IMG/VR virus record: IMGVR_UViG_3300020187_000009
Location: 84,785-148,784 of that record
From: a virus
DNA length: 64,000 nucleotides
Reading direction: 5' to 3' (one strand)
Shown here one piece after another: positions 11,170 through 46,384 of this stretch. The first letter of the stretch is position 1. Each line of letters begins with the position of its first letter. A model generated the notes under the pieces. The model made no database searches. It was not told the DNA's origin and worked only from the letters and a program-made list of their open reading frames with translations. The position numbers and the translations under genes are program-made.

Positions 11170-11820
11170 ATGAAAAAGGTAAAACTATTTGAAGAGTTTG
11201 TCAACGAAGAATCTATTTCATTTGATAAATCGGGTGTTAAATCTAAATTAAAAGACAAGGTTAGAATTGCCAAAATAGCTGTTGAAAAATGGGGCGGTAG
11301 TTATACAAAGGTTTTAAAGAACGCTGAAGCAGCTCTTAAGTCTGGTAAATTACCTAATTATAAAGAACCCTTAATGGTTCAAGGTGATGACAAACAAGAC
11401 GATTATGATATATTTCGAGGAAGAAATTCTGTTAAATTAGCAGAGAAGATTTCTAAAGTAATTAAGAAGTATAAAAAATATGAAGTTGATCAGTCTTCGA
11501 CTGGAGCAGCTGGTGGATGGTCTGGTACAATGAGTTCTACTGTTGGCGGAGAAATTCAAGGTAGAGCAAACTTTAATCCAGGTGGTAGGAGAACCTACTT
11601 AATAGCAGTAACATGTGGGAGTGGGATTGATTCAAAAATTAAAGATAAAATGTTCCAAGAATTATATGAGTTGTTTTTTGTGATGGATCAATATAATTCA
11701 TTAGATGGTGGAGTAATGTTTGACTATAGTGAAGGTACAAATTACGACACTATTGGATTAACTAATGATTCTTATCAATTTGGAAACGCTGCGTCACTAT
11801 CAGACATAATGAATAACTAA
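11170..11820 (+). CDS. Putative internal head protein
   Basis: MKKVKLFEEFVNE leader. Confidence 0.6.
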   Translation: MKKVKLFEEFVNEESISFDKSGVKSKLKDKVRIAKIAVEKWGGSYTKVLKNAEAALKSGKLPNYKEPLMVQGDDKQDDYDIFRGRNSVKLAEKISKVIKKYKKYEVDQSSTGAAGGWSGTMSSTVGGEIQGRANFNPGGRRTYLIAVTCGSGIDSKIKDKMFQELYELFFVMDQYNSLDGGVMFDYSEGTNYDTIGLTNDSYQFGNAASLSDIMNN

Positions 11821-11824
11821 ATAT

Positions 11825-12037
11825 ATGAAACATACTACAGATTTTAACGAGTTTATTAATGAATCTAAAGAATCAGACGCATTAGCAAAGGGAATTAATA
11901 AAGCAATAATTAAAATCGACGATTCAATGTCATATGAGGATTTTGCTTTAGCAGTAGGTAAAGTATTAAAAGACGAATACGGGTCTCACAATTACAAGGG
12001 ATTTATGGAAGTCTTACATAAAAAATTAGGAATATAA
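11825..12037 (+). CDS. Putative internal head protein
   Basis: MKHTTDFNEFINES leader. Confidence 0.6.
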   Translation: MKHTTDFNEFINESKESDALAKGINKAIIKIDDSMSYEDFALAVGKVLKDEYGSHNYKGFMEVLHKKLGI

Positions 12038-21060: not shown

Positions 21061-21848
21061 AGTCATACTTTTATAAAAACCCAAACGATTGTTCAATGAA
21101 TTGGGGAGACATAATAGCTCCCGATATCATATCTCACTTTTCAAAAAGTACTAATATTCAAGAGACTAACGAAAATAATGATTCTCCAAAATTAGTAAGT
21201 GTTGGAAGCGTCATGAACGCTGTAAAACCAAATGACATGGTTTGGGGTACTGGAATCATAACACCAGGTGTAATAGGAAATGCTGGACTAGCGCGAATCT
21301 TTGCAGTTAGAGGACCTAAAACTAGAGATGAACTATTAAAACATAAGATAGAATGTCCAGAAATATATGGAGATCCAGCACTTTTATATCCACAAATTTA
21401 TACTCCAGAAAATATAGAGAAAACACATGAATGGGGAGTAATAGCTCATTATGTTGATAAATATCACCCAGGTGTGATCCAGTTACAAAAGAGAGGATTT
21501 AAAGTTATCAATATATTAGCTGGTAAAAAGCAATTCGTGGATCAATTACACAGAGTAGAAAAGGTTTTAAGTTCAAGTCTACATGGATTAATAGCAGCAG
21601 ACGCATATGGAATTCCTAATGCTAGGATTAGGTTTTCTAATAAAGTAGTAGGTGGAGACTTTAAATTTATGGATTACGCGCTTAGCGTAAATAGAAACGA
21701 TTGGAGAGCTATTGATGGAAATACAGATCAAATACAATATCCGGGTTATAATAGCGTAGAACTTTCTACACAAATTGAATGGGATTCTCAAAAACTATTA
21801 GATGCTGCACCATGGGTCCACAGTGACTATACTGGATTGTTTTATTAA
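21057..21848 (+). CDS. Polysaccharide pyruvyl transferase family protein
   Basis: NWGD, VGS, WGTG, VRGP, GDPAL, SSSLHG, FKF.DY. Confidence 0.85.
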   Translation: MKSYFYKNPNDCSMNWGDIIAPDIISHFSKSTNIQETNENNDSPKLVSVGSVMNAVKPNDMVWGTGIITPGVIGNAGLARIFAVRGPKTRDELLKHKIECPEIYGDPALLYPQIYTPENIEKTHEWGVIAHYVDKYHPGVIQLQKRGFKVINILAGKKQFVDQLHRVEKVLSSSLHGLIAADAYGIPNARIRFSNKVVGGDFKFMDYALSVNRNDWRAIDGNTDQIQYPGYNSVELSTQIEWDSQKLLDAAPWVHSDYTGLFY

Positions 21849-21880
21849 TCAGATAAATAGATTAAAATATAGTTACGAAG

Positions 21881-23962
21881 GTGGCAAGAGCAAATCACAC
21901 AAGACATTTCGGAGACAACTCTGATAAATCTAAAATAATAGAATTACATAAACAGCTTGCAGACAGCAAGTTAGTAGTTGCTACTTTAGGAGAAAGGGTT
22001 GCTGATAGAAATGCTGAAATCAATGATCTGCAAATTAAAATGGCTGCTAATAATGCTGAAATAAAAAAGCTAAGGACCGATCTAGAATCAATAGGTAGTT
22101 ATAAAGATGCCAGGCTTAAAGAACTTGAGCTACAGAAGATAAAGGACGATATTTCCATAAAAAAATTACAGGCTGCGCTCCAAAAGAAAAAGACAGAAAT
22201 CTTGAAAAAACAACAAGATGTAAAAACGACAACTGTAATTGAAAGTACTCTACCCGAAACACCTAAGAAGATAATAGCTAACAAAATAGCTCTATTTACT
22301 TCAATTAATGCAAATTACGTAAAATACGCGGTAACAAGTTATGCATCGTACGAGAAACAAAATCCTGGAAAGTTTGATTTCTTTATTATTACTGCAGATA
22401 GATTAACAGATGCCGAAGATGCACTATGCGAAAGAAGTAATATTACTGTAATTTATCAAGACCTAAGTACTGTATTTAAAATTGGAAAAGATTGGCCCTA
22501 TCCAAGTGAATGTTTTTGGATCTATAAAGGACCAGAGATATTTAATCAACTTGGTTATAAATATTCAATGAGTGTTGATGTTGATACCTATTGCGTACAA
22601 CCATTAAACTTGAAGTGGCTTAACAACATTAAAATGATTGGTGCCGCAGAAAGAAGACAGGGAAGACTCTATCCAAATCAAAAAGTAACGTGCTATGGAT
22701 TTCTAGAGCAGGTTGGTAAGGTTTCGGAAATAGAAAAACACTTCAATAGAAAATACAATCGAGAAATACTAGGAGTAAACAGCGGAGTACTATTCTTTAA
22801 TAACCAATCATGTGTAGATAATAAGTTCTACGAGGGAATGGTATCCCTATTTAATAAGACTAAACAGCTTGGATATCCAAGAAAGGGTGATGATTCTCTA
22901 CTAAGCATGTATTTAATGCTCATGGATCCTGAATTATTAACCCATGTTGGGCCTGAATGGAACTATTATTATCTATATGAAGAGGACGAACAAAATGATA
23001 TTCTTCAAACAATAAACATCGCACATCTGCATCGACACAAACCATGGGATTTCTCCAGAATCGGGCATATTAGAAACCAAAACATTCTCAAAATACTGGA
23101 GAATTGGAAACAACTAACATTAGATATGAAACATAAAGAACCCCAACTAGAACAATCAGTATGGTGGTACAGACCCCAGAAAGGATATAACTTTGGAGAT
23201 GAAATAACTCCATGGCTAGTACAAAAGATCTTTGGAGTACATCTTAAAAAACCATGTAATCTTAGTGATCCAAATGTAGTACTTGGTGTAGGTTCTATTA
23301 TGAGATTAGCCAATCCAAATACAACAGTTTGGGGATCAGGTATCCGTAATATTGATCAAGCTGATTTTGGTCAGGCAAAGGAATGGGTAGCAGTACGTGG
23401 AAGATTCTCCCAGAAACAAATAGAAAACCTGGGATGGAAATGTCCAAAGGTATTCGGTGATCCTGGAATGCTCTTACCCCTATACTATAATCCCAAACCC
23501 CCTAAGAAATATAAGATAGGAATTGTACCCCATCTGGTAGACTGGGAACAAATTAACCGAATGTGGGGCAATCTACCCGATGTAAAGATAATTGACCTTA
23601 ATACAAATGATATCGAGAGTGTAGTAGATCAAATGATGGAGTGCGAACATATAGCATCGACAAGTCTACATGGTATAATTACAGCAGTAGCATATAAACT
23701 ACCAGTAGTATGGCTTAGAGCCTCTGATATGATTAACGGAGACGACATTAAGTTCTACGATTTCTGGTCCTCTATAGACTATACAGTATTTACACGTTGG
23801 AACGATCAACCAAACAGTCATAAACCCCACTTCAACCCAATCCCAATCAATCAAATACAAGATCCACTCCAAATCCAACAACTAACACATCAACACGACC
23901 TACAGCAATTTAATACTAAACGACTCCTAAAAGCAATACCCCTCAAGATTCAAAGGTCGTAG
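21881..23962 (+). CDS. Coiled coil + GT8-like glycosyltransferase + pyruvyl transferase fusion
   Basis: N-terminal coiled coil; DVD, NSGV, H..KPW; NFGD, WGSG, VRG, GDPG, STSLHG. Confidence 0.8.
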   Translation: MARANHTRHFGDNSDKSKIIELHKQLADSKLVVATLGERVADRNAEINDLQIKMAANNAEIKKLRTDLESIGSYKDARLKELELQKIKDDISIKKLQAALQKKKTEILKKQQDVKTTTVIESTLPETPKKIIANKIALFTSINANYVKYAVTSYASYEKQNPGKFDFFIITADRLTDAEDALCERSNITVIYQDLSTVFKIGKDWPYPSECFWIYKGPEIFNQLGYKYSMSVDVDTYCVQPLNLKWLNNIKMIGAAERRQGRLYPNQKVTCYGFLEQVGKVSEIEKHFNRKYNREILGVNSGVLFFNNQSCVDNKFYEGMVSLFNKTKQLGYPRKGDDSLLSMYLMLMDPELLTHVGPEWNYYYLYEEDEQNDILQTINIAHLHRHKPWDFSRIGHIRNQNILKILENWKQLTLDMKHKEPQLEQSVWWYRPQKGYNFGDEITPWLVQKIFGVHLKKPCNLSDPNVVLGVGSIMRLANPNTTVWGSGIRNIDQADFGQAKEWVAVRGRFSQKQIENLGWKCPKVFGDPGMLLPLYYNPKPPKKYKIGIVPHLVDWEQINRMWGNLPDVKIIDLNTNDIESVVDQMMECEHIASTSLHGIITAVAYKLPVVWLRASDMINGDDIKFYDFWSSIDYTVFTRWNDQPNSHKPHFNPIPINQIQDPLQIQQLTHQHDLQQFNTKRLLKAIPLKIQRS

Positions 23963-32918: not shown

Positions 32919-33016
32919 TTAGTTAAAAATTTTCCGAAATTTCCTTAGAACCCATTGAGACAATGAAACAATTCGTTCAATCTATCTATAATAATATAAT
33001 AACTAATAATAAAAAA

Positions 33017-33280
33017 ATGAGTATTCTTAACGAAGCAGATCAAATTGTAAATAACCGCAGTGAAGAGGCAGATCGTAACTATGGTCCATTCTCAGAGGGT
33101 ATGGAGCGTGCAGCAATGATTTTTAATGGCATGACTGGGCACGATGTTTCTGGTGGTGACATGTTTAAGGCGCTAGTAGCACTTAAATTCTCACGTGAGA
33201 GTTACAATCATAAACGTGATAATCTATTAGATGCTGTCGCATATATTCAAGGTTTAGAAAACTGGGAAAACGGACTATAA
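33017..33280 (+). CDS. DUF6378-like all-alpha protein (nucleotide-modification associated)
   Basis: ILNEA..IV..R....YG...LK.SR....DN..D..AY; promoter at 32965-32991 favours ATG 33017. Confidence 0.65.
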   Translation: MSILNEADQIVNNRSEEADRNYGPFSEGMERAAMIFNGMTGHDVSGGDMFKALVALKFSRESYNHKRDNLLDAVAYIQGLENWENGL

Positions 33281-33294
33281 CTTATTAGTGCATT

Positions 33295-34332
33295 ATGAAA
33301 AATATCCAAGATCTTAAAGGTAAGAAAATAGCAATTGATGATGTAGTCACAACATACAGCCAAAAAAAGGCATCACATAAGAGTGCGTGGTCTTATCTTC
33401 TACAGGCTCAATTGAAACATCATGGATTAGACGTTGATGTCTTAGATAAATCCGGAAATATACATGATTATGATGTATGGTTAATTGCGATGCCAATGGA
33501 GTTTCAAGGAACTTATAATCTATTTGGAGGAGCTGGAGACGAACCAGCTGCCAGAATTGCTAGATTCTTAGATTTCAATGGCGATATATTTTGTTTGAAT
33601 AGAGAAATGCCAGATGTTGGCGAGTTCGTGAGAAGCAGATCAAAGAGCTGTACTGAAAATTGGAAAGCTCTTGACGATTTAGCAATCAGCGAGAAATGTA
33701 AAAACCTAAAAACAATAAACCTAAAAACAGATACAGGAACTTTTGTATTAGGAGACAGTCACTCAGTATCGGTAATGCCATTAGGATCTGATATTAGTAG
33801 AAACGACGGAAAAACATTATTTGGCGCGTTAAAAGAAGGATTTAGTACATATATACCAGAAGGAACAACCCATTTGATATCCTATTTTGGCAATATCGAC
33901 GTTCGACATCATATGTGCAGGCAAGCTGATCCAGTAATGTCTATCCGCAGAATTGCAATGGACTATATAGACCATCTTAAATCTCTAGATGTTCCTAATA
34001 TAACTGTGCATAAATTATTACCTATAGAATTTGAAGGTAGAAGAATTCCTAAAACAGGATGGTATAAAAAAGCTCCATTCTTTGGAACAAGAGAAGAAAG
34101 AGCAAACCTAGTTAAAATATTTAACAGAACTATACAGGATTTAGGAGAATCTGCAGGATTTACAATATTAGGATGGCCTGATCATTGGTATTCTGAAAAC
34201 CCAGAATCTTTTGCAAAAAACTATATGGAAAAGCCTGGTTCGGTACATCTAAGTAGAGAATTCTATTATTGGGATTGGAATACTGGAAATAAAAACTCGA
34301 ACCTCATTCAAAAGACAGCCAGCCTGTTTTAG
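33295..34332 (+). CDS. Phage protein with SGNH-like domain, candidate DNA-modification enzyme
   Basis: NLFGG, GDSH, GNIDVRHH, RRIPKTGWYK, SVH; C-terminal SLF. Confidence 0.55.
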   Translation: MKNIQDLKGKKIAIDDVVTTYSQKKASHKSAWSYLLQAQLKHHGLDVDVLDKSGNIHDYDVWLIAMPMEFQGTYNLFGGAGDEPAARIARFLDFNGDIFCLNREMPDVGEFVRSRSKSCTENWKALDDLAISEKCKNLKTINLKTDTGTFVLGDSHSVSVMPLGSDISRNDGKTLFGALKEGFSTYIPEGTTHLISYFGNIDVRHHMCRQADPVMSIRRIAMDYIDHLKSLDVPNITVHKLLPIEFEGRRIPKTGWYKKAPFFGTREERANLVKIFNRTIQDLGESAGFTILGWPDHWYSENPESFAKNYMEKPGSVHLSREFYYWDWNTGNKNSNLIQKTASLF

Positions 34333-34451
34333 CCCCCACCAAACTGTATATATATCACTCAGCACACCTAAAGTGAAAATATTTTTTAATATCTTGAAAC
34401 TTTTTTAAACTGTGTTGTATAACTATTATAAACAAAAAATAAAGGTTTAAA

Positions 34452-35630
34452 ATGAAGCAAAAAATTAAAGTTGGGATCATTGGAACAGGAAATTGCGCCA
34501 AGTCCCTAGTAGAAGGAGTTCAGTACTATACTGAAAACAAAGAAGCAACCACCGGTATGATGAAATTCGATATTGGAGGTTATACTGCAGAAGATATCGA
34601 ATTCGTAGTTGGATTTGATATCGATGAGAGAAAGGTTAATCTGCCATTAGGCGAAGCACTAAAGCAAAAACCTAACTGTTCTTGGAATATTGTTGAAGAT
34701 ATTAAATCAACAGCACCTGTATTTGAAGGTCCTGTAATTGATGGATATGCACAACTAATGGACCGTTACCCAGAATCAAATAGATTTTTAATATCTGAAG
34801 AATTAAGAAATTCAACTGATATGGGTAGAGTTTCATGGACCTCTAAATTAGAGAGATCTTGGAAAGATTCAATCATTGCGAAATTAAAAGAACTTGAAGT
34901 AGAGGTATTAATAAACTACTTACCTGTAGGTTCTCAAAAAACTACTGAATTTTGGGCTGAAATCTGCCTAGAAACTGGAATTTCCTTTGTAAACTGTATT
35001 CCAGTATTTATTGCTTCTGACCCAGCATGGGAACAGAGATTTATTGATGCTGGTATTCCAATTATTGGAGATGATATGCGCTCGCAGTTTGGAGCATCGA
35101 TTCTTTCTCAAATGCTACAGGAGCTAGCTTTTGAAAGAGGACACCATGTTAAAGCACACATTCAGCGTAATGTTGGAGGTAACACAGATTTCTTAAACAT
35201 GGAAGACAAAACAAGATTAGCTTCTAAGAAGATTTCTAAAGAAAACGTAATTCGTGCTCAAAATGAAATTCGTGGAATCTCTACAGAGGATTCTTTCTTA
35301 CATGCTGGGCCATCTGAATATATTTCATTTTATGGAGATAATAAAGTAGCAAACTTTAGACTTGAAATGGAAGGATTTGGAGGAGCACCTGTATTACTTG
35401 ATGCTCAATTAAGTGTTCAAGATTCTCCAAACTCAGCAGGTGTTGTAATTGATGCTTTGCGATACGTAAAAGTAGCTCGTGAAATGGGAATAGTAGGAGC
35501 TCTTCGTGGACCATCTGCATTTACTCAAAAAACACCACCTCAACAAATGATGTTTAGGGATGCTGTTAAAGAATGCGACGCATTAGCAGTTCGTGAATTA
35601 ACCAATGTAACTAAAAAGCAACTCAAATAA
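34452..35630 (+). CDS. ino1: myo-inositol-1-phosphate synthase
   Basis: GTGNCAKSLV, NYLPVGS, GDD, NVGGNTDFLNM, SKKISK, DNKVA, DSPNSAG, QK.P. Confidence 0.92.
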   Translation: MKQKIKVGIIGTGNCAKSLVEGVQYYTENKEATTGMMKFDIGGYTAEDIEFVVGFDIDERKVNLPLGEALKQKPNCSWNIVEDIKSTAPVFEGPVIDGYAQLMDRYPESNRFLISEELRNSTDMGRVSWTSKLERSWKDSIIAKLKELEVEVLINYLPVGSQKTTEFWAEICLETGISFVNCIPVFIASDPAWEQRFIDAGIPIIGDDMRSQFGASILSQMLQELAFERGHHVKAHIQRNVGGNTDFLNMEDKTRLASKKISKENVIRAQNEIRGISTEDSFLHAGPSEYISFYGDNKVANFRLEMEGFGGAPVLLDAQLSVQDSPNSAGVVIDALRYVKVAREMGIVGALRGPSAFTQKTPPQQMMFRDAVKECDALAVRELTNVTKKQLK

Positions 35631-35649
35631 ACCTTTATTTATAGTTGTT

Positions 35650-35673
35650 AAGGGAGTCTTCGGACTCCCTTTT
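35650..35673 (+). terminator. Hairpin/terminator with UUCG loop
   Basis: AGGGAGTC-TTCG-GACTCCCT followed by T run. Confidence 0.75.
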
Positions 35674-35701
35674 ATAGATCATAATAATATAATAATAAAA
35701 A

Positions 35702-36070
35702 ATGGATATATTTGCATACGATTTTGATGGTGTAGTTTCAATCGGAATTACCCCTCGATGGAGTGATGATATCATTATTACAGGAAGATGTCAAGAAGAG
35801 GCGCCTTACGTTTTTGATAAATTATCAGAGATGGGGGTTACTACTAAAGTTTATTTTAACCAAATGACACTAGCAGAAAGAGGAGACCATACTGTCAATG
35901 CTAGAACATACTCAGGAAAACATAAAGCTAAAACTATAAGTGAATTAGCCGAACAGGGCATTAACGTTGTTAGATTTTTTGAAGACGACCCTGTACAAAA
36001 GGCGATTATTGAAGAGAATCATCCAAACCTAGACGTGGTACATGTAGTATCAAACTTAGTACAAAAATAA
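35702..36070 (+). CDS. Minimal HAD phosphatase
   Basis: YDFDGV, ITGR, HK, FFEDD. Confidence 0.8.
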   Translation: MDIFAYDFDGVVSIGITPRWSDDIIITGRCQEEAPYVFDKLSEMGVTTKVYFNQMTLAERGDHTVNARTYSGKHKAKTISELAEQGINVVRFFEDDPVQKAIIEENHPNLDVVHVVSNLVQK

Positions 36071-36077
36071 AATAAGA

Positions 36078-36746
36078 ATGCTAGACCCAAAACAAAGATC
36101 AATCTTAAAAAAGAGATATGTTAAAGAATTAAATGCACAGGAAAGTGTAGATAAAGATATGATTTCAGAATCAATTAAAAACTACATCAAGCCAGAAGTA
36201 GATTATCTAAATAAAGTATGTTTAGATCTAGGTACTAATATAGGAGCTTTTACTAAAATAGCAATAGAAGGAGGAGCAAAGAGAGTGTATGGTATCGAAT
36301 GCGACTTTAGAAACTACAACATAGCTGCTAATAATTTTGCAGCTTCGATTCATGCTAATATAATTCATGCTGCAGTATCTGGATCTACAGAAGATACTCT
36401 TAAAATATACAAATCAAACGCTAAAAGTAACCATAGCTCAACATCTATTATTAAAAGAAGAGGTACCTTTAATGAATATGACGACGTTAAAAATTACCAT
36501 ATTGACCATCTGTTAGAAGAGATTAAGCCAGATATTATTAAAATTGACATCGAAGGAGCAGAGTATGATATAATAGAAAGCGTGCTCGAATATAAACCAA
36601 GTATATTGTTTATTGAACTACATGGAAACCATGATCAAGCAAAGTCTGCAGTACAGAGGTTTACCGAAGCTTATAAAACATCAAACATAGAAGAGATCAT
36701 TATATTTCAAAAAGTTGGAGGATATGATTGTCTATTTATAGATTAA
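36078..36746 (+). CDS. FkbM-family SAM-dependent methyltransferase
   Basis: LDLGTNIG, GIE, AAVS, IKIDIEGAEY, IELH. Confidence 0.85.
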   Translation: MLDPKQRSILKKRYVKELNAQESVDKDMISESIKNYIKPEVDYLNKVCLDLGTNIGAFTKIAIEGGAKRVYGIECDFRNYNIAANNFAASIHANIIHAAVSGSTEDTLKIYKSNAKSNHSSTSIIKRRGTFNEYDDVKNYHIDHLLEEIKPDIIKIDIEGAEYDIIESVLEYKPSILFIELHGNHDQAKSAVQRFTEAYKTSNIEEIIIFQKVGGYDCLFID

Positions 36747-36760
36747 AATATTAATATAAT

Positions 36761-37813
36761 ATGGCAGATAATATGAGAGCTCTTGTTAACATGGAGGTTG
36801 TCGATCGAATAGGTTATTTTTTTAACAAAGTTAATGAGAGATCTGAATTAAATTATGGATATAGAGATTCATATGACAGTGAAGGTGATGCAGCTCTTGG
36901 AGAAACTGTAGAGTATTTTCATCCTCATATATTATATGATGATCGTATGAGATATATTATGGATAATATCGTGTTATCTGATATGTCGATGAATAATATT
37001 ATTTGCAACACGATAATATCCCACTTTTATGGAGCTAGAGGAATTCACCAGATTCTAACAAGAAACTCAGATCCAAAAACAGCTCTAGTAGATTTTGAAA
37101 GACTTTTAAAAGACAAGGAATACGAAACTGAAATCAGAAAGAATATTGATGACGCAATATCACTAGGACTTGGAGTATACGGAACAACTGAACTTAGAAC
37201 CAGCCTATATGGAGCTTCAAATACTTGGGTTTCTGAAACCAGACAAACTGAACGTAATGCAGATAAGATTAACATATTACTTTGGGTTGCTGGATTTATA
37301 CCTAGAGGAATTACTAGACGAATGGCTGGCGTTAACTCTTTATCGGAAATGTTCGATATATTAACAACAATTGAAGGAGTAGGATCCTATTATGGATATC
37401 ATTGCTCAACTTCTAATTCAGTTAACCCAAATATATCAATAAACCATGACGAAAGATTCTGTGTACCTGGACCTGGTGCTAGAATGGCGCTAGACATGAT
37501 GTTTGGAGAGGGTTGTAAAGTACCACATGGTGATAGAGTAATTTGGTTTAGAGAAAACTATAAAGATCTTATTGGAGAAATTCCACTTAACGAAAATGAA
37601 TGGAATAAGGTGGTTAATGGAGTGAAGATATTTGCTGATGATCAGAACGAGCTCAAAACATATGGATGCGAAGTTGGTCTATGTCAGTTTGGAGTTTATA
37701 CTAGACTAAGTAACAATTCTAATTTAATTAACAAACGAAAAGTTGCTAGGGTTGATGAAAACATAATGCAATATTTTTTTAACAATAACTTCTCACAGGG
37801 TAGTTTGTTCTAA
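36761..37813 (+). CDS. aGPT-Pplase1 / 5-hmdU DNA kinase helical-domain-like DNA base hypermodification protein
   Basis: F..VNER, DDR, HhH-like GVGSYYGY, DERFCVPGPGA, E..LCQF..Y; C-terminal QGSLF. Confidence 0.65.
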   Translation: MADNMRALVNMEVVDRIGYFFNKVNERSELNYGYRDSYDSEGDAALGETVEYFHPHILYDDRMRYIMDNIVLSDMSMNNIICNTIISHFYGARGIHQILTRNSDPKTALVDFERLLKDKEYETEIRKNIDDAISLGLGVYGTTELRTSLYGASNTWVSETRQTERNADKINILLWVAGFIPRGITRRMAGVNSLSEMFDILTTIEGVGSYYGYHCSTSNSVNPNISINHDERFCVPGPGARMALDMMFGEGCKVPHGDRVIWFRENYKDLIGEIPLNENEWNKVVNGVKIFADDQNELKTYGCEVGLCQFGVYTRLSNNSNLINKRKVARVDENIMQYFFNNNFSQGSLF

Positions 37814-38223
37814 TGAACTTATTTTTAGATGATTCTAAATTACCTAAGGACGTATTAAATAATATGCTCCTTAGGATTGGTAATGATGCAAACATTTATT
37901 GTAATTTAGAATGGGAAATTGTAAAGGATTTTAGGGAATTTGTAAAATTTGTAGAAAATAACGGAATTCCTAAAGTAGTTTCATTCGCACATGATCTAGT
38001 CGATGAACATTACGAAATAATGTGTGCATGTGGTTCTAGTGAAGATTTTCCAGAAACATTTAATGAAAAGACCGGATTAGATTGTGCAAAATGGCTAGTA
38101 GGACATCACATATTAAAGGGTGGAGCCTTTCCAAAAATACTAGTACACTCTATGAATCCGTATGGAAGCGAAAGAATTAAAAATTATATTAGCAAATATA
38201 CGAAACAATTTGTAAATTTATAA
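37813..38223 (+). CDS. Cyclic-phosphate processing receiver-like domain (degenerate)
   Basis: LFLDD, SFAHDL, KTGLDCAKWL, VHSMNP.G. Confidence 0.7.
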   Translation: MNLFLDDSKLPKDVLNNMLLRIGNDANIYCNLEWEIVKDFREFVKFVENNGIPKVVSFAHDLVDEHYEIMCACGSSEDFPETFNEKTGLDCAKWLVGHHILKGGAFPKILVHSMNPYGSERIKNYISKYTKQFVNL

Positions 38224-38248
38224 TACAATAATAAAGTAACACAATAAT

Positions 38249-38716
38249 ATGGCAAATATAGATAACGAATGTAAAGATCTAGAAGTACAAGACTTTTATG
38301 ATCAGTCAACGACTCATCTAGATGATATAATGACTCATCAGAAAGAGATGCAAGAAAAAACTTACGGTTTTAATTTTGAAGAGATGTCAATCAGGGACAT
38401 CATGAATTTCTGGCATGTTAACACACATGCTGTAGTAGATGAGATACACGAGATGACGGATGCACTTGGAGGTATCAAAGACGGTAGTGGAAACGCAGTA
38501 TGGAAATATTGGAAAAAAGACTTTTCTAAATTTGAGACTATGAAAATTTCTGATATGTCTGAAGGAGACAAAAAAGAATTATATATGGAATGGGTAGATA
38601 TTCTACACTTTTTTATTAATTACGCTGCATCTATTGGACTTGACGCAAAGACCGCTTATAATTACTATTTTGCTAAAGCGGAAGAGAATAAAAACCGCCA
38701 AAAAAGAGGCTACTAA
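38249..38716 (+). CDS. T4 gp56-like dCTP/dUTP pyrophosphatase
   Basis: NEC, DE..E...LG, AVWKYWK, DMS, EWVDILHF, N..RQ..GY. Confidence 0.85.
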   Translation: MANIDNECKDLEVQDFYDQSTTHLDDIMTHQKEMQEKTYGFNFEEMSIRDIMNFWHVNTHAVVDEIHEMTDALGGIKDGSGNAVWKYWKKDFSKFETMKISDMSEGDKKELYMEWVDILHFFINYAASIGLDAKTAYNYYFAKAEENKNRQKRGY

Positions 38717-39562: not shown

Positions 39563-40534
39563 ATGAATAGAATAGAAGAACAATACCGAGCGTTACTTGG
39601 AACCCTATTAGAAAACTCAACAGAAAAATCAGATCGCACTGGAACTGGAACACTATCAGTATTCGGTCGCCAGATCAGACACAACATGAAGGATGGATTT
39701 CCTCTGCTAACTACCAAGAGGATGGCGGTTAAGACAATGTTAGTGGAGTTAAAATGGTTTCTAAGAGGTGATACTAACATTAAATATCTTGTTGATAATG
39801 GGTGTAACATCTGGAATGGCGATGCTTATAAGAAATACTGTAAAGCACACCCCTCTGAATATCAAGATGATATGTTTACCCAAGAGGAATTCGTAGAGCA
39901 TATTAAAGAAGATGAATCATTCGCTAAAAATTGGGGTGAGTTAGGTCCTATCTATGGTAAACAATGGAGAGAATGGGGTTCTAGAAGTTCTTATAATAAA
40001 ATCACAGGTGAAAATAATATAATGAATCCTGGACATGATCAAATCGCAAACCTAATCAATGAACTTAAAACAAATCCAGATTCACGTAGACTTATGGTCA
40101 ATGCTTGGAATGTTGGTGAGTTAGATCAAATGACACTTCCACCATGTCACTATGGATTCCAAGTTTATACACGATTAACTACTAGAGAAGAAAAGATTGT
40201 AAATCCTGGAAAATACAGAGCAATCTCTTTAATGTGGAACCAAAGAAGTTGCGATTTATTTCTCGGACTTCCGTTTAATATTGCAAGCTATGCAGCACTT
40301 CTTTGTTTAATAGCAGAAGAGGTTAATATGGTTCCAGATCAATTAATTGGAAACTTAGGTGATGTTCACTTATATAAGAATCATATTGAACAAGCAAGAG
40401 AACAATTAACTAGGGAAATGTATGATTTACCAACAGTTGAATTTAGTAACGTAGATTTATTAGGTGGTGAATTCGATATTGAAGTAAAGGATTATAAATA
40501 TCATCCAAGTATTAAAGCGCCTCTATCAAATTAA
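39563..40534 (+). CDS. thyA: Thymidylate synthase
   Basis: DRTGTGT, FPLLTTK, GPIYGKQWR, LPPCH, QRSCDLFLGLPFN. Confidence 0.95.
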   Translation: MNRIEEQYRALLGTLLENSTEKSDRTGTGTLSVFGRQIRHNMKDGFPLLTTKRMAVKTMLVELKWFLRGDTNIKYLVDNGCNIWNGDAYKKYCKAHPSEYQDDMFTQEEFVEHIKEDESFAKNWGELGPIYGKQWREWGSRSSYNKITGENNIMNPGHDQIANLINELKTNPDSRRLMVNAWNVGELDQMTLPPCHYGFQVYTRLTTREEKIVNPGKYRAISLMWNQRSCDLFLGLPFNIASYAALLCLIAEEVNMVPDQLIGNLGDVHLYKNHIEQAREQLTREMYDLPTVEFSNVDLLGGEFDIEVKDYKYHPSIKAPLSN

Positions 40535-40588: not shown

Positions 40589-41269
40589 ATGAAAGAGAAG
40601 AGAGATAAAGCAGAAGATGCATGGCAGATTATGAGAATTCAAGGAGAATTTACAAAAGGGTTCGATACATTTAGCGAATTAGGACCTTGTATTTCAGTAT
40701 TCGGTTCTGCAAGAACTAAACAAGGAAGCAAATGGTATAATGAAGCACGTGAATTTGGCAAGCTAATTGCATGTGAAGGTTTTGGAGTTATTACAGGGGG
40801 TGGTCCAGGCATTATGGCAGCCGCAAATCATGGAGCGCATGAAGTTAGTGGTAAATCTATCGGTATCGGTATAGAATTACCGTTCGAGGCAGGTATGAAT
40901 AAGTACGTAGATCTTGGTATTGAATGTAGATACTTTTTTACAAGAAAGGTTATGTTCTTAAAATACTCACAGGCATTCGTAGTATTTCCAGGAGGAGTTG
41001 GAACATTAGATGAAACATTTGAAGCGATAACATTAGCGCAATGTGGGCATAACATAAAATATCCAATAGTTCTTGTAGGTAAAGAATACTGGAGTGGTTT
41101 AATAGATTGGCTAAGAGGCACTGTTCTAAAAAATAATAAAATGAGTCCAGAAGATTTTGATTTATTTAGAATAGTAGACAGCGCAGAAGAAGCAAGAGAT
41201 AAATTAATGGAATACCATAACAAATATATGACGAACCCCGATTATTTAGGACCTAAAACAAACTTTTAA
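40589..41269 (+). CDS. LOG family nucleotide phosphoribohydrolase (TIGR00730-like)
   Basis: VFGSAR, TGGGPGIM, FFTRKVMF, PGGVGTLDE. Confidence 0.9.
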   Translation: MKEKRDKAEDAWQIMRIQGEFTKGFDTFSELGPCISVFGSARTKQGSKWYNEAREFGKLIACEGFGVITGGGPGIMAAANHGAHEVSGKSIGIGIELPFEAGMNKYVDLGIECRYFFTRKVMFLKYSQAFVVFPGGVGTLDETFEAITLAQCGHNIKYPIVLVGKEYWSGLIDWLRGTVLKNNKMSPEDFDLFRIVDSAEEARDKLMEYHNKYMTNPDYLGPKTNF

Positions 41270-41270
41270 G

Positions 41271-42356
41271 ATGAAAAACAATAAAATCTTTCTACACAAT
41301 TATTTAAACGCATATGCACCAGTAGCACAAGAGACTGAAGGTCAGCAAATCTGGACAGATTATATTAAACAGTATGTTGATTTTTTAAAGCAGGATGCAT
41401 ATGGAACTTCGTATGGTGTGCTTAAGCGTAAATTAAGGAAATATGAGACTCTTGATGTAAATACACATAAAGTAGTTATTGAAGCACACTGTGATGAGAT
41501 TGCATGGATTATTACACACATTGAAAGTGATGGTATGATCAGAGTAAAGCGACACGGAGGCAGTGATAATATGATCGCACCTTCTAAGACTGTAATGATC
41601 CATACACATGACGGTAGGAAATTACGTGGTCTTTTTGGATGGCCAGCAATTCATACTCGTGAAAAGTACACATCAATGGGCTATGAACAACATGAGCTTT
41701 GGGTAGATATGGGTCTTAAAGATAAAGAAGCAGTACTTAAAGCTGGAGTTGAGATTGGTAACCTTATAACATTCGACACTCAATTAGAAGAGATCGGAGA
41801 CTATTATGTTGGTCGATCATTAGATAATAAGATAGGCGGATATATTATAGCAGAGGCACTTAGAAAGATCTCAGAAGATAATGTTAACTTACCATATGAT
41901 TTATATGTTGTTAATAGCGTTCAAGAAGAGGTTGGTCTTCATGGTGCTAAAAAGATTGCTAAACACTTAAAGGCTGATTTGGCCCTGGTACATGATGTGT
42001 GTCACAATACAAATACACCTAAGATTGACAAGGCAAAGGATGGAGATAATAAAGGTGGAGATGGTCCATGCTTAGAATATACTGCACAAAATCATAGAGA
42101 CATTAATAAAATGTTAAGAGAGGTTGCAAAGGATAATAAGATTCCAGTTCAACTAACAGCTGGGTCGATGGGCAATGATACAATGGCATTCTTTATGGAG
42201 AATACACCAACTGCCATCATCGCTTCACCGCTTAAATACATGCACACAACCGTTGAGTCAGTACACCGTCGAGACGTAAAGTATGCTATTAAATTATTTG
42301 TTGAGTTTTTAAAGGCATTAACCCCAGAAAAAATCAATAAAATTAATAATAGATAA
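41271..42356 (+). CDS. M42 family metallopeptidase
   Basis: AHCDEI, SLDNKIG, QEEVGL, HDV, YMHTTVE. Confidence 0.9.
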   Translation: MKNNKIFLHNYLNAYAPVAQETEGQQIWTDYIKQYVDFLKQDAYGTSYGVLKRKLRKYETLDVNTHKVVIEAHCDEIAWIITHIESDGMIRVKRHGGSDNMIAPSKTVMIHTHDGRKLRGLFGWPAIHTREKYTSMGYEQHELWVDMGLKDKEAVLKAGVEIGNLITFDTQLEEIGDYYVGRSLDNKIGGYIIAEALRKISEDNVNLPYDLYVVNSVQEEVGLHGAKKIAKHLKADLALVHDVCHNTNTPKIDKAKDGDNKGGDGPCLEYTAQNHRDINKMLREVAKDNKIPVQLTAGSMGNDTMAFFMENTPTAIIASPLKYMHTTVESVHRRDVKYAIKLFVEFLKALTPEKINKINNR

Positions 42357-42380
42357 AACAAAATTACAGTAAGTAATCTA

Positions 42381-42406
42381 AGGGAGCCTGTATTGGCTCC
42401 TTTTTT
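42381..42406 (+). terminator. Intrinsic terminator
   Basis: GGAGCC/GGCTCC hairpin plus T run. Confidence 0.75.
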
Positions 42407-42510
42407 GTGCCTAAAGAAATGTGTAATGATGATTTCAGTATGTAAACTAAATCAAAAATGTATATATAATTAAAGAAATAAATACAATAAGAAATTAAAC
42501 AAAACAATAT

Positions 42511-44526
42511 ATGTCATTAGCAGACGGATACGAAAATGAAAAGGGCCGAAATAAAAAGACCAAGACTAATACGCCATTCTTAGATGAGTATGGTGAAGAT
42601 ATGACTAAATTAGCAGCAGACGGTAAATTAGACCCTATTATTGGTAGAGATAAAGAGATCTATAGAATTTGTCAGATTCTTGCTCGTAGGAAAAAGAATA
42701 ATCCTATTATATTAGGAGATCCTGGTGTAGGTAAAACTGCAATTGTTGAAGCGATTGCACAGCGAATTGTCAGTAAAAAAGTTGCAAGAGTGCTACTAAA
42801 CAAAAGAGTAATTTCTATCAGCATGACAAATATAGTCGCAGGTACAAAATATCGTGGCGAATTTGAAGAGAGAATGAAAAGCATTGTAGATGAACTCAAA
42901 TCTGCTAAAAACATTATCGTATTCATCGATGAGTTACATACAATAGTAGGAGCAGGCGGTGTAAGTGGTGCATTAGACGCTTCTAACATTTTAAAACCAG
43001 CATTAGCAAGAGGCCAAGTACAATGTATTGGAGCAACGACACTAGATGAATATAGAGAAAACATCGAAGACGATGGTGCACTAACTCGTAGATTTCAAGA
43101 AGTTTTCGTGGATCCTCCTTCGGTTGATGATACTATTGAGATTCTTAATAGAATTAAAGGACAGTATGAAGAACACCACTCAGTTGAATATACTGACGAT
43201 GCAATAATAGCATGCGTAAAAATGAGCGAGCGATATATTAAATCTAGAGAATTGCCAGATAAAGCAATTGATCTATTAGACGAATCTGGTGCAAGAACTC
43301 ATTTGCTAGAAGTTAAAATACCTGCAAAAATTAAAAACCTTGAAAGAGATGCTGAAATTGTAAGATTAAAAAAAGAATCAGCAGTATCCGGACAAGATTA
43401 TGAATTAGCAGCACAGCTGCGCGATGAGCAGCTTGTAATCGATGACAAGGTAATAGTTGAAACTGAAAAGTGGGAAGATTCTCTTAAAAAAACAAAGAGA
43501 AAGGTAGATGTTGAAGATATTGCAGAAACTATTTCTATGCAAACTGGAATTCCAGTACAGCGACTAGGCCTTGATGAAAAGAAACTCATCATATCTATGG
43601 CTAAGGAGATAAAAAAACAAATTATAGGACAAGACGCTGCGGTTGATGCTCTTTCTACTGTAATTAAGAGATCTCGAACAGGAGTAAGCAGTCATAAAAA
43701 GCCAGTAGGTTCATTTATGTTCTTGGGTCCTACTGGTGTAGGTAAAACTGAGACCGTTAAGGCACTTGCTGAATATATGTTTGGGGATACTGACGCTATG
43801 GTTAGAATAGATATGTCAGAATACCAAGAAAAGTTTAATGTTTCTCGTCTAATTGGTTCTCCTCCAGGATACGTAGGACATGAAGATGGTGGACAATTAA
43901 CAGAGGCAGTTCGTAGAAAGCCGCACTCTGTGATTCTATTCGATGAGGTTGAAAAGGCACATCCTGATGTATTTAACACATTGTTGCAAGTTTTAGATGA
44001 TGGTAGATTAACGGATTCTAGTGGAAGGATTGTTGATTTTACAAATACAATTATTGTAATGACTTCAAATATAGGTGCTCGTAAGGTAGCAGACTTTGGA
44101 ACAGGAGTAGGATTTCAAAGCGATAGTATATTGCTACAACAAAGCGCTAAGATTGAAGGTATAATTAAGAAAGAATTAAAGAATAAATTTAGTCCTGAAT
44201 TTTTAAACAGACTAGACGATATTATTCTATTTGATCACCTAACGATCGAAAATGTAATTAAGATAGTAGACATTGAGTTGTCAACATTTAACGAAAGAAT
44301 GATAGAAGAAGGATATAATTTTAAATTCATGAAAAGCGCCAAAGAGTTTATAGCAAATGAAGGATACGACAAGGCATACGGTGCTCGACCTGTAAAAAGA
44401 GCAATTCAAAAATATGTAGAGGACCTAATTGCAGACCTAATATTAACTGAAGAAATTACTCCAAGAGAAGATGCGTATACTCTTAGTAAACTTAAGTCAG
44501 ATAATAAACTAAACCTTAAATCCTAA
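42511..44526 (+). CDS. clpC: ClpC-like AAA+ unfoldase lacking the Clp N-domain
   Basis: GDPGVGKT and GPTGVGKT Walker A motifs, UVR-like DYELAAQLRD, VGF ClpP-docking loop. Confidence 0.85.
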   Translation: MSLADGYENEKGRNKKTKTNTPFLDEYGEDMTKLAADGKLDPIIGRDKEIYRICQILARRKKNNPIILGDPGVGKTAIVEAIAQRIVSKKVARVLLNKRVISISMTNIVAGTKYRGEFEERMKSIVDELKSAKNIIVFIDELHTIVGAGGVSGALDASNILKPALARGQVQCIGATTLDEYRENIEDDGALTRRFQEVFVDPPSVDDTIEILNRIKGQYEEHHSVEYTDDAIIACVKMSERYIKSRELPDKAIDLLDESGARTHLLEVKIPAKIKNLERDAEIVRLKKESAVSGQDYELAAQLRDEQLVIDDKVIVETEKWEDSLKKTKRKVDVEDIAETISMQTGIPVQRLGLDEKKLIISMAKEIKKQIIGQDAAVDALSTVIKRSRTGVSSHKKPVGSFMFLGPTGVGKTETVKALAEYMFGDTDAMVRIDMSEYQEKFNVSRLIGSPPGYVGHEDGGQLTEAVRRKPHSVILFDEVEKAHPDVFNTLLQVLDDGRLTDSSGRIVDFTNTIIVMTSNIGARKVADFGTGVGFQSDSILLQQSAKIEGIIKKELKNKFSPEFLNRLDDIILFDHLTIENVIKIVDIELSTFNERMIEEGYNFKFMKSAKEFIANEGYDKAYGARPVKRAIQKYVEDLIADLILTEEITPREDAYTLSKLKSDNKLNLKS

Positions 44527-44548
44527 TATAATATTAAAATAATATAAT

Positions 44549-45388
44549 ATGAGTTTTTCACAAACATTTATAGATTTAGTCAATGAGATCGAAGACAACG
44601 GTACTGAATCTTCTCCAAGAGATATGAAAGTAAAAGAAGCAATGATGGCTTCTTTTGATATAGATCCAACGCATCCAATTGCAGATTTTAAAGACCGTCC
44701 ATTTAACTTTAAATATTTTACAGGAGAGCTTGCATGGTATCTCCACAGAGATAATGATGTTGATTACATTTCTAACTTTTCTAAATTTTGGAAAAACTTA
44801 ACAAATGAAGGAACTAATGAAATTAATTCTAATTATGGAAGTTTAGTACTTAACGATAAGCAAGTTGGATGGGTTGTTGATTCTTTAGTAAATGATAAGA
44901 ATTCAAGACAGGCAATTATGTTTTTTAATCAGCCTAAATTTCAAGTAGAAGGAAATAAAGATTTTGTATGTACTCTATACGCAAACTTTTTTATTAGAAA
45001 TAATACGCTATATATGAAGGTTCAGATGAGATCAAATGATATATTCTTTGGACTTACATTTGATGCACCATTCTTTTCATTCCTTCATCAATCTATTTTT
45101 TTAATACTAAAAGATAAATATAAAGACCTTGAACTTGGTCACTATTTCCATAATTCAGATAACCTACATTTTTATGAAAGACATTTTAATCTAGCATCAG
45201 AAATTAAAGAAAATGGAATCGGAAGCGAATACTCATTAATACTAAAAAACAAATTACTAGATTATAATAGTGATAATGGAGTATATCTAACTGACCAGGG
45301 ATTAGAATTTTTGCAAAGAGTTGATAATTCAATTAAGATGAAGGACGCAAATTACAAGAATATATTAAACGATTATTTCGAAATATAA
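44549..45388 (+). CDS. Thymidylate synthase paralogue, dCMP hydroxymethylase (T4 gp42)-like
   Basis: INSNYG, SRQA, DFVCT, MRSNDIFFGLTFD (Asp at the base-specificity position), LHFYERHF. Confidence 0.8.
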   Translation: MSFSQTFIDLVNEIEDNGTESSPRDMKVKEAMMASFDIDPTHPIADFKDRPFNFKYFTGELAWYLHRDNDVDYISNFSKFWKNLTNEGTNEINSNYGSLVLNDKQVGWVVDSLVNDKNSRQAIMFFNQPKFQVEGNKDFVCTLYANFFIRNNTLYMKVQMRSNDIFFGLTFDAPFFSFLHQSIFLILKDKYKDLELGHYFHNSDNLHFYERHFNLASEIKENGIGSEYSLILKNKLLDYNSDNGVYLTDQGLEFLQRVDNSIKMKDANYKNILNDYFEI

Positions 45389-45389
45389 G

Positions 45390-45710
45390 ATGGAAGAATA
45401 TACTGAAGATAATATACCAATAATTAGAATAGATCCACTAAAAATTTCAAAGGCAGATCTAGATCTAAATTTAATGGCAAAATATGATGTTTTCTACCGA
45501 AGAATAGTCGAATACACTCTAGCATACATTGAAGATATGCCAGTAACCGAAATACTAGTTATATTAATAGACGATGAAGGAATAGAATATGAAATGTGCC
45601 TTCCTCCTCAAGGATTTTCTAAGTCTCTTAATAAGTCAATGGAATACTTTAAACAAATAGAAGAATACGAAACCTGCGATTTAATAAAGCAAATTTTAAA
45701 AAACATATGA
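45390..45710 (+). CDS. Hypothetical protein with UVR-like C-terminus
   Basis: YF..IEEYETC motif. Confidence 0.6.
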   Translation: MEEYTEDNIPIIRIDPLKISKADLDLNLMAKYDVFYRRIVEYTLAYIEDMPVTEILVILIDDEGIEYEMCLPPQGFSKSLNKSMEYFKQIEEYETCDLIKQILKNI

Positions 45711-46384
45711 ATTATTTCCCAAAAGATAAAGAATTTAACAGGTTTGCACAGAGTGAACTTAACATTGGATCCTCAAAAATAGACATGTATTCGAAGCATA
45801 TACAAGGATCGATGACACCTTATATCCTAGAAGAGAGAGAATTAAGAGCTACTCAAATGGATATTTTTAGTAGATTAATGATGGACAGATTACTGTGGGT
45901 TGCTGGTCCAGTAAATGATCAAATGTCAACTGTAGTACAAGCACAGCTGATGTTTTTAGATACCACATCATCTGATGATATTACAATGCATATTGATTCT
46001 CCAGGAGGCTCAGTTAAGTCAGGACTATCTATGGTAGATGTAATGGACTACATTAAAGCTGATATTAGAACCATTAATACTGGAATGGCCGCCTCAATGG
46101 GTTCAGTATTATTAGGCGCTGGAACTAAAGGTAAGAGGATGTCACTAAAACACTCAACAACAATGCTACATCAATCTTCTGGAGGATTCAGTGGTAATAT
46201 ACAAGACGCTGAAATTGATTGGAAAAATTGGAAAGAAGTAAACCGCGAACTTTTTGTACTTCTAGGAGAATATTGCGGAAAACCAGCAGACGTAGTTATG
46301 AATGACGCTACTAGAGATTTCTGGCTTAGCGCTGAACAGGCAGTCGAGTACGGTATTATTGATGAAATAATTAAAAAAAGATAA
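45707..46384 (+). CDS. clpP: ATP-dependent Clp protease proteolytic subunit
   Basis: DIFSRL, SPGGSV, AASMG (Ser), MLHQ (His), RDFWLSA (Asp). Confidence 0.95.
   Translation: MNYFPKDKEFNRFAQSELNIGSSKIDMYSKHIQGSMTPYILEERELRATQMDIFSRLMMDRLLWVAGPVNDQMSTVVQAQLMFLDTTSSDDITMHIDSPGGSVKSGLSMVDVMDYIKADIRTINTGMAASMGSVLLGAGTKGKRMSLKHSTTMLHQSSGGFSGNIQDAEIDWKNWKEVNRELFVLLGEYCGKPADVVMNDATRDFWLSAEQAVEYGIIDEIIKKR

Follow-up and report, generated by a model that had tools for sequence, protein, structure and literature searches.

Why would a phage make its own inositol in the midst of genes for DNA modification? The question is raised by a block of genes at positions 33,017 to 38,716 of a 64,000-nucleotide stretch of viral DNA (hereafter the window; G+C ~33%), the final 64 kb of the 148.8-kb IMG/VR virus contig IMGVR_UViG_3300020187_000009 (CheckV completeness ~49%), which includes a gene for myo-inositol-1-phosphate synthase (MIPS), treated in phages to date as a bacteria-like gene of unknown role (PMC9025141). 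We tentatively propose that this block leads to a (probably) O-methylated myo-inositol joined by an ether link to 5-hydroxymethylcytosine (hmC), that the reaction is carried out independently of a kinase by SGNH and PF18723 helix-hairpin-helix (HhH) enzymes on the sliding clamp, and that MIPS and a small HAD phosphatase form a mobile pair serving as a general donor module for hmC, 5-hydroxymethyluracil (hmU) and 7-deazaguanine chemistries. The inositol-on-DNA reading is well supported by context; for this window in particular, we judge the view that the block is a post-replicative hypermodification cluster on hmC, with inositol covalently attached to that base, to fall just short of an even chance. 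All of the evidence is computational (sequence, predicted folds and gene context).

The gene block and its putative inositol donor genes

All seven genes that an initial annotation of this DNA had named in the block (for DUF6378-like, SGNH-like, MIPS, HAD, FkbM, aGPT-Pplase1-like and gp56-like proteins) were confirmed, close-packed and on the plus strand; that annotation had overlooked a cREC_REC gene (37813-38223) and the canonical thymidylate synthase (TS) gene (39563-40534). The open reading frames (ORFs) and signals are as follows, with structure predictions by AlphaFold2 (AF2).

32963..33280, + strand, DUF6378 protein (PF19905, 1e-9); likely true start 33017
32965..32991, + strand, promoter-like motif GAAAC-N17-TATAA, ahead of the DUF6378 start at 33017
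33295..34332, + strand, ORF2, 345 aa, N-terminal Rossmann-like alpha/beta domain and C-terminal SGNH/GDSL domain (AF2 fold, invariant residues)
34396..34422, + strand, second copy of the GAAAC-N17-TATAA motif, 30 nt 5' of MIPS
34452..35630, + strand, myo-inositol-1-phosphate (inositol-3-phosphate) synthase, MIPS (PF01658, 82 bits; 1GR0, 1.1e-81)
35650..35671, + strand, G+C-rich hairpin AAGGGAGTC-TTCG-GACTCCCTT, read from the sequence, directly 3' of MIPS and followed by a T-rich stretch
35702..36070, + strand, minimal capless HAD-type phosphatase, 122 aa (HAD motifs invariant in 8 lineages)
36078..36746, + strand, FkbM-family S-adenosylmethionine methyltransferase (PF05050, 67 bits; TIGR01444, 65 bits)
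36761..37813, + strand, ORF6, stand-alone PF18723 (HMUDK_hel) HhH-fold protein (Pfam, 52 bits; AF2 fold)
37813..38223, + strand, cREC_REC domain protein (PF20274, 1.4e-15)
38249..38716, + strand, T4 gp56-type dCTPase/dUTPase (NTP pyrophosphohydrolase), 155 aa (phrog_173, 8e-12; tblastn)
39563..40534, + strand, canonical thymidylate synthase ThyA (PF00303, 8.5e-93; signature L-C-x-D-N)
44549..45388, + strand, gp42-like dCMP hydroxymethylase, a TS paralogue (1B49/1B5E, 1.4e-17; active-site signature)

Within the proposed pathway, the gp56/gp42, MIPS and HAD steps are assigned by family membership, and the steps involving ORF6, the ORF2 unit, the coupling reaction and FkbM by fold, gene fusions and context.

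The donor side of the pathway begins with MIPS, which would convert glucose-6-phosphate to inositol phosphate. The protein scores 82.3 bits against PF01658 (Pfam gathering cut-off 27), aligns over its full length with Mycobacterium tuberculosis Ino1 (1GR0; residues 4-367, as 4-101 and 140-367) and keeps the conserved NAD-binding and catalytic motifs (GIIGTGNCA, GDDxxSQxGA, NVGGNxDFLNM, SKKISK and DSPNSAGV), which bears out the earlier description of an intact enzyme. The five-membered-cyclitol synthase 6K96 is a much weaker match (155 bits), and the protein lies below the mycothiol-type Ino1 equivalog TIGR03450 (299 bits vs. a cut-off of 638). MIPS is the best-conserved gene of the block, being 82-91% identical across contigs (L005-L097) whose ORF2, HAD and ORF6 reach only 25-70%; so high an identity of MIPS reflects either very strong constraint or gene exchange among these phages. 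Since its G+C content and its G+C content at third codon positions equal those of its neighbours, MIPS is not a recent arrival.

A small HAD phosphatase would then strip the phosphate, before or after transfer. The 122-aa protein found no match in Pfam, NCBIfam or PDB sequence searches; its motifs (D7-x-D9-G-V, T27, K75 and E94-D95-D96, corresponding to HAD motifs I-IV) are nevertheless invariant in 8 lineages, so that the four motifs are consistent with the phosphatase call made at the outset, and its Atlas neighbours carry Acid_phosphat_B/Hydrolase_3 HAD families (score 0.88-0.89, a lead only). In 134 of the 152 MIPS loci described below the gene is found no more than three genes from MIPS, and the cultured MIPS-bearing phages keep it too. 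The pair resembles the start of the mycothiol pathway (Ino1, MshA and the MshA2 phosphatase) in that the phage MIPS has its nearest match in actinobacterial Ino1 (1GR0). Mycothiol synthesis uses the inositol phosphate directly as acceptor and takes off the phosphate only later, and the same order of steps is possible for the phage; in contrast, the phage block has no MshA-type transferase, and its context is that of DNA modification.

Hydroxymethylcytosine and the enzymes that may decorate it

The acceptor base is indicated by the TS paralogue, which the initial annotation had recognised downstream of the block as an Asp-type enzyme and which we confirmed at 44549-45388. Its best PDB match is T4 dCMP hydroxymethylase, it carries the motifs DFVCT and RSNDIFFGLTFD, and in Escherichia coli numbering it keeps the catalytic Cys and D169 and has the changes L143D and N177D (signature D-C-N-D-D). 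By published criteria for TS homologues, Asp at N177 denotes cytosine specificity and D169N denotes a 5-hydroxy-dCMP synthase (PMC13326640). Because the paralogue keeps D169, hmC and not 5-hydroxycytosine (5hoC) is the expected precursor: of the two target bases that had been suggested, cytosine in the form of hmC stands on the gp42 signature, and 5hoC was rejected because the diagnostic D169N change is absent. The D-C-N-D-D signature recurs in 24 of 26 TS paralogues adjoining MIPS clusters on other contigs. The gp56-like protein shares ~31-33% identity, across 98% of its length, with dCTPase/dUTPase/NTP-pyrophosphatase genes in >1400 T4-like records (tblastn), a homology to gp56 of T4-like phages that supports its annotation as a dCTPase, while a PDB sequence search with it gave no match. 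Together, the gp56-type dCTPase and the gp42-type paralogue would yield hm-dCMP such that hmC replaces C in the phage DNA, and the canonical ThyA beside the block suggests, from its context, that T is retained.

ORF6 scores 52.1 bits against PF18723 (cut-off 25; residues 59-318), the HMUDK_hel family, which the initial annotation equates with aGPT-Pplase1. An AF2 model built from 28 homologues is confident (predicted local distance difference test (pLDDT) 91; predicted template modelling score 0.89). Foldseek alone returned no match at E <= 0.001; on VIA-align realignment the best solved match was PaMx11 gp46 (8z2n), a 5-phosphomethyldeoxyuridine (5-PmdU) glycinyltransferase (Z 11.0, root-mean-square deviation (rmsd) 3.8 Å, 229 residues), followed by DUF2419 (Z 9.2) and then by many HhH DNA glycosylases (Z 7-9). 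The predicted fold, with PaMx11 gp46 as its top match, agrees with the HhH/aGPT-Pplase assignment made beforehand for 36761-37813. A GVG hairpin (206-208), H229-D230 ~22 residues on, and E304/C308 are invariant or nearly so in the family; ADDT enzymes have a metal site and a Cys that takes part in catalysis (PMC13458397). PF18724 (ADDT/aGPT-Pplase2) had no match in the 148.8-kb record. ORF6 is taken up by its helical domain, has neither a Walker A motif nor a P-loop kinase domain, and hence is no 5-hydroxymethyluridine DNA kinase. Some ORF6 homologues (L016:11564-13027; P0073) carry an extra 140-180 aa at the C-terminus, for which, in P0073:340-527, no Pfam family was found.

ORF2 matched no Pfam family, and an Atlas fold search with it returned only unnamed viral clusters; it belongs to a widespread phage family of 781 relatives without annotation. 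In its AF2 model (pLDDT 89) the C-terminal domain has an SGNH/GDSL fold, matching esterases and acyltransferases (Z 12.7, rmsd 3.0, 163 residues; Foldseek probability 1.0). The invariant residues are G153-D154-S155-H156, N200, D202 and H318, and the modelled fold together with the block I Ser (S155), block III Asn (N200) and block V His (H318) is in line with the earlier SGNH-like label; the block V acid departs from the usual DxxH spacing. The methyltransferase is well above both of its cut-offs (PF05050, 66.9 bits vs. 22.7; TIGR01444, 64.9 vs. 37.7); three of the profiles for which checks had been suggested (PF01658, PF05050 and PF18723) thereby have scores above their thresholds.

Gene fusions tie these three proteins together. 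ORF2 is fused to an ORF6 homologue (HEL) in 24 long proteins, three of which (979-1001 aa) have FkbM in between, and PHROG 17781 (795 aa) likewise joins ORF2-like and ORF6-like parts; the contig of one 1001-aa triple fusion also encodes MIPS, a methyltransferase, a HAD-sized 126-aa gene, a TS homologue and a dCMP deaminase. On the strength of these fusions we regard ORF2, FkbM and ORF6 as one functional unit. A prediction of the ORF2-ORF6 complex scored 0.00, which gives no verdict and speaks neither for nor against binding.

The C-termini of ORF2 (...KTASLF) and ORF6 (...SQGSLF) share an xLF end that is kept in many homologues of both, and the same phage has such ends on the C-terminal half of its family-B DNA polymerase (PolB; ...YASALF) and on its flap endonuclease (FEN; ...NLNNLF); xLF-type ends occur in only 12 of 191 ORFs. 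Going by this motif, ORF2 and ORF6 are probably held at the replication fork through a clamp-binding xLF tail. A PF02916 search of the record (~49% complete) found no sliding clamp gene. A 228-aa ORF beside the clamp loader was considered as the clamp and rejected, as it resembles a family-2 (GT2) glycosyltransferase. This GT2-like gene (G000:C1:28335-29021, upstream of the window; PDB GalT1, 2e-8) lies in a replication module with the clamp-loader-like gene and FEN.

We envisage the decoration step as follows. ORF6, with the 5-PmdU glycinyltransferase as its nearest solved relative, would flip bases as an HhH enzyme; ORF2, with its Rossmann-like and SGNH domains, would work with ORF6 as one unit on newly made DNA, the two forming an ether bond between the cyclitol and the 5-CH2OH group of hmC, and FkbM may then O-methylate the product. 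Known ADDTs take free nucleophiles, and in ViI the hydroxyl of serine is linked to DNA as an ether (PMC8989533); a class of O-C hypermodifications has been named (PMC5889632). Since known ADDTs use free nucleophiles, including O-linked ones, the donor would need no activation, and the missing donor-activating enzyme that the initial annotation had listed as a gap is probably not required. The real gap is how the 5-CH2OH group is activated without a kinase. As the kinase is absent, ORF2 is a candidate for this role, and the sole one, perhaps acting, speculatively, by way of an ester leaving group.

MIPS loci across phages and competing explanations

A profile scan of viral contigs found at least 498 stretches with MIPS. 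The ORFs of 170 loci were labelled by jackhmmer from seed genes, which left 152 MIPS loci once duplicates were removed, grouped at 70% identity into 22 clusters, and we counted HEL, ADDT, TET, DpdA, QueC, QueE, the TS paralogue and ORF2 as hallmark DNA-modification genes. At least one hallmark gene lies within 6 kb of MIPS in 147 of the 152 loci (18 of 22 clusters), and HEL, ADDT or DpdA does so in 119 loci (16 clusters). Three contexts recur, namely an hmC-type TS paralogue with HEL and SGNH, TET with ADDT and a kinase, and the 7-deazaguanine genes DpdA, QueC and QueE, and the MIPS-HAD pair is inserted among the core genes in varied orders (DpdA/QueC, ADDT/kinase, ORF2/FkbM). HEL and SGNH co-occur with Asp-type (cytosine) paralogues, whereas ADDT co-occurs with TET or with Asn-type (uracil) paralogues; the TET/ADDT type is the only one whose loci hold a small P-loop kinase (Ploopntkinase3/AAA_18). 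The order DUF6378-ORF2-MIPS-HAD-(FkbM)-ORF6-(cREC)-gp56 is kept in ~90 viral contigs, even where the neighbours are only 25-45% identical; one subgroup has the block extended by the TS paralogue and a dUTPase, adjoining PolB. The linkage of ino1 to modification genes in relatives, raised as a question by the initial annotation, therefore holds both in these ~90 syntenic contigs and in other modification clusters of distant phages.

Cultured phages represent several of these contexts. When the block was compared with cultured phages by blastn, only a 370-nt MIPS stretch in Caulobacter phage Cr30 matched. In Cr30, MIPS follows an ADDT gene (PF18724, 1e-52), and a 'putative SNF2 DNA repair protein' (L002:2709-4037) is a Tet_JBP dioxygenase (8e-21). 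Also around the Cr30 MIPS are genes for a dGTP_diPhyd_N protein, ADDT, a weakly TAGT-like protein and a small P-loop protein; the phage carries an Acb3 inhibitor of the cyclic-oligonucleotide-based anti-phage signalling system (CBASS) at L002:14858-15658. In Ralstonia phage RP13, a PF18723 protein (1.7e-48) is encoded 3 kb 5' of MIPS; the jackhmmer label of its ORF118 as ADDT was not confirmed by Pfam and was dropped. In Stenotrophomonas phage Moby the gene order is FolE-MIPS-HAD-QueC-DpdA-QueE, and Stenotrophomonas phage IME-SM1 likewise combines MIPS with deazaguanine genes. A ResIII/Helicase_C_2 (XPD/DinG-like) helicase recurs by PF18723 genes, both in RP13 (L003:5278-6927) and in a MIPS-less contig (L182:13509-15125).

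Several observations weigh against the covalent inositol-hmC reading. The structural match of ORF6 (Z 11) is only moderate for an all-helical protein, ORF6 has no sequence similarity to ADDT (hhalign vs. the Cr30 ADDT, probability 0.2%), and stand-alone PF18723 proteins have no established function. No P-loop kinase or known activating enzyme lies within six genes in any of the 93 window-type loci, and a Walker-A scan of the record (~49% complete) found only P-loops of helicase, clamp-loader, terminase and Clp type. The loci come largely from T4-like phages, in which genes for nucleotide metabolism cluster in any case, and the proximity counts have no random-gene control. Furthermore, 7-deazaguanine clusters, for which no reaction of an inositol nucleophile suggests itself, contain MIPS-HAD too, and SGNH-HEL fusions occur with no MIPS nearby (beside a PLP-like gene in the contig L182, and in Aeromonas phage 44RR2.8t), indicating that the core needs no phage-made inositol. 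The 7-deazaguanine context and the MIPS-less fusions argue for caution as to the exact chemistry.

The strongest alternative, unlikely in our view, is that ORF2, FkbM and ORF6 modify hmC with another group (methyl, acyl, or an imported or host metabolite) and MIPS-HAD is a non-covalent helper that might shift hexose-phosphate pools or supply a cofactor, effector or compatible solute. It would account for the fusions that lack a nearby MIPS, beside a PLP-like gene in L182 and beside a Na+/solute symporter in 44RR2.8t, and for the presence of MIPS-HAD in chemically different 7-deazaguanine clusters; FkbM inside the ORF2-HEL fusion fits direct methylation of the base, and the MIPS gene is preceded by a promoter-like motif of its own and followed by a hairpin. 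A mere helper, however, is not expected to sit directly among the core genes in many arrangements and in three pathway types, the TET-ADDT-kinase clusters place MIPS-HAD at the usual site of a tailoring or donor gene, and no gene of the block is better conserved than MIPS.

Improbable is a second alternative, that MIPS-HAD serves metabolism in the usual way of auxiliary cassettes, supplying inositol for host lipids, osmolytes or virion glycans, and happens to be co-located in the variable early/replication regions of T4-like genomes. Regional drift hardly explains the placement of MIPS-HAD between core genes in differing orders, and no inositol-lipid or CDP-inositol enzyme was seen adjoining the pair. 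Four of the 22 MIPS clusters, including a contig of a giant-virus metagenome-assembled genome, do lack a nearby hallmark gene, the glycosylation and pyruvylation operon at 17225-23962 of the window could use sugar-derived units, and the missing random-gene control favours this explanation too; set against these are the counts of hallmark genes near MIPS given above (147 of 152 loci, 18 of 22 clusters). Finally, we hold it very improbable that the block is a nucleotide-pool pathway in which the substrates of ORF6 are RNA or free nucleotides and the protein is a salvage enzyme or nucleoside-monophosphate glycosylase like DUF2419, for although DUF2419, a queuine salvage enzyme, is its second-best structural match (Z 9.2) and the neighbouring dCTPase, TS, dUTPase and dCMP deaminase act on nucleotide pools, PF18723 is annotated as the helical domain of 5-hydroxymethyldeoxyuridine (5-hmdU) DNA kinases and is found in thymidine-hypermodifying phages, the GVG hairpin with an Asp ~22 residues on is DNA-glycosylase-like, and the ORF6 tail is common to PolB and FEN.

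Known systems and the surroundings of the block

The covalent inositol-hmC pathway would share features with several known systems. Thymidine hypermodification (in ViI, M6, PaMx11, PhiW-14 and SH-Ab 15599; PMC8989533, PMC11472151, PMC13458397), which uses a 5-hmdU DNA kinase and aGPT-Pplase2/ADDT, likewise decorates a 5-hydroxymethylpyrimidine after replication with an HhH-fold transferase and a free small-molecule nucleophile (O-linked in ViI), its genes for donor supply and tailoring lie in a cluster with the core genes, and the ORF6 family PF18723 is found in those phages. In contrast, the base here would be C and not T, the block lacks a P-loop kinase and ADDT, a two-domain SGNH protein is an obligate partner, and the putative donor is a phage-made cyclitol and not an amino acid or polyamine. 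The glucosylation of hmC in T-even phages (gp56, gp42, gp1 and the alpha- and beta-glucosyltransferases) has the same pre-replicative hmC route, the same gp42 active-site signature and a bulky polyol-like group of the kind expected on the 5-CH2OH; the block has, however, no GT-B DNA glucosyltransferase or UDP-sugar donor, and transfer would be a substitution at the methylene carbon rather than glycosyl transfer to the hydroxyl. In RB69 and DLP3, which carry arabinosyl-5-hydroxycytosine (PMC13326640), a TS paralogue also sets the modified C, and donor synthesis is phage-encoded beside the DNA transferases and includes a small HAD-like sugar-phosphate phosphatase; but their TS homologues have D169N and make 5hoC, whereas that of the block keeps D169 (hmC type), and their donor is an NDP-sugar for glycosyltransferases.

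The closest cultured counterpart of the transferase unit is ORF233c (795 aa, phrog_17781) of Aeromonas phages 44RR2.8t and 31, in which an ORF2 homologue (38% identity, 5e-59) is fused to an ORF6 homologue (E 3e-20) and which ends in a tail of the same type (...SLDGLFAI); 44RR2.8t also has gp56 and a gp42 with the hmC signature. Phages 44RR, 31 and 25 have gp42 and gp56 and lack glucosyltransferases (Petrov et al., 2010; PMC2993671), and the fusion protein may be a candidate answer to the fate of hmC in the glucosyltransferase-less 44RR and 31. Unlike the window, 44RR2.8t has no MIPS-HAD; a Na+/solute symporter gene (PF00474, 6e-53) lies directly 5' of the fusion (ORF234c/ORF233c, L183:3277-7257), which points to a donor taken up from outside and not synthesised by MIPS-HAD.

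Full-text literature searches on inositol together with hypermodification, deazaguanine or phage DNA turned up no paper on an inositol-modified DNA base, and the initial annotation likewise states that none is known. If the proposed pathway is correct, a cyclitol would join sugars, amino acids and polyamines among the few groups known from phage DNA, a second, kinase-free route to derivatised 5-hydroxymethylpyrimidines would exist, a family of cyclitol-bearing DNA bases would be new to chemistry, and both the stand-alone PF18723 family and the 781 unannotated ORF2 relatives would gain a function. An inositol adduct and glucosyl-hmC have the same mass, and such adducts may earlier have been misread as hexose; by calculation, inosityl-hmdC would be C16H25N3O10 with a monoisotopic mass of 419.154, and its O-methyl form would have a mass of 433.170. 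New DNA-modifying enzymes and restriction-resistant DNA would have uses as tools and in phage therapy; the phage group is abundant, judging by the number of viral-contig stretches with MIPS (at least 498), and the cultured phages Cr30, RP13, Moby and 44RR2.8t are open to direct tests.

The source is, from its gene content, most plausibly a large marine T4-related phage, a placement based on the homology of gp56 to Straboviridae and on T4 gp9/10 and gp13 genes in a relative. Near-identical DNA is present in marine and viral metagenome runs; these public runs are short-read contigs and so carry no base-modification signal. The record encodes collagen-like tail fibres, a split PolB, FEN/RNase H, a ribonucleotide reductase and a clamp-loader-like P-loop protein.

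Within the block, the DUF6378 gene invariably adjoins ORF2 on its 5' side in window-type loci, and its start at 33017 is favoured because of the promoter-like motif at 32965-32991. The cREC_REC gene was set aside as a pathway member, being found in only 17 ORFs and in only some relatives and thus probably a variable insert. The GAAAC-N17-TATAA motif has 8 exact matches in the window (4775, 9638, 17180, 28337 on the minus strand, 29417, 32661, 32965 and 34396) vs. 0.6 expected, a number reached in 0 of 100 shuffles, and likely represents a phage promoter class that covers the DUF6378-ORF2 unit and MIPS. The hairpin at 35650-35671, which a simple terminator scan did not detect, is possibly a terminator or an RNA-stabilising stem.

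Further from the block, PolB is encoded by two genes ~4.6 kb apart (G000:C1:5338-6741 and 11393-12595), with the ribonucleotide reductase small-subunit gene in between. The TS paralogue is flanked, at 40589-46384 of the window, by proteostasis and metabolism genes (LOG/SLOG, M42 aminopeptidase, a ClpB-like two-AAA ATPase and ClpP). The operon at 17225-23962 comprises two GT2 glycosyltransferases, a flavin/NAD mutase-like oxidoreductase and two polysaccharide pyruvyl-transferase proteins; it lies directly 3' of a collagen-like fibre gene and may glycosylate virion proteins.

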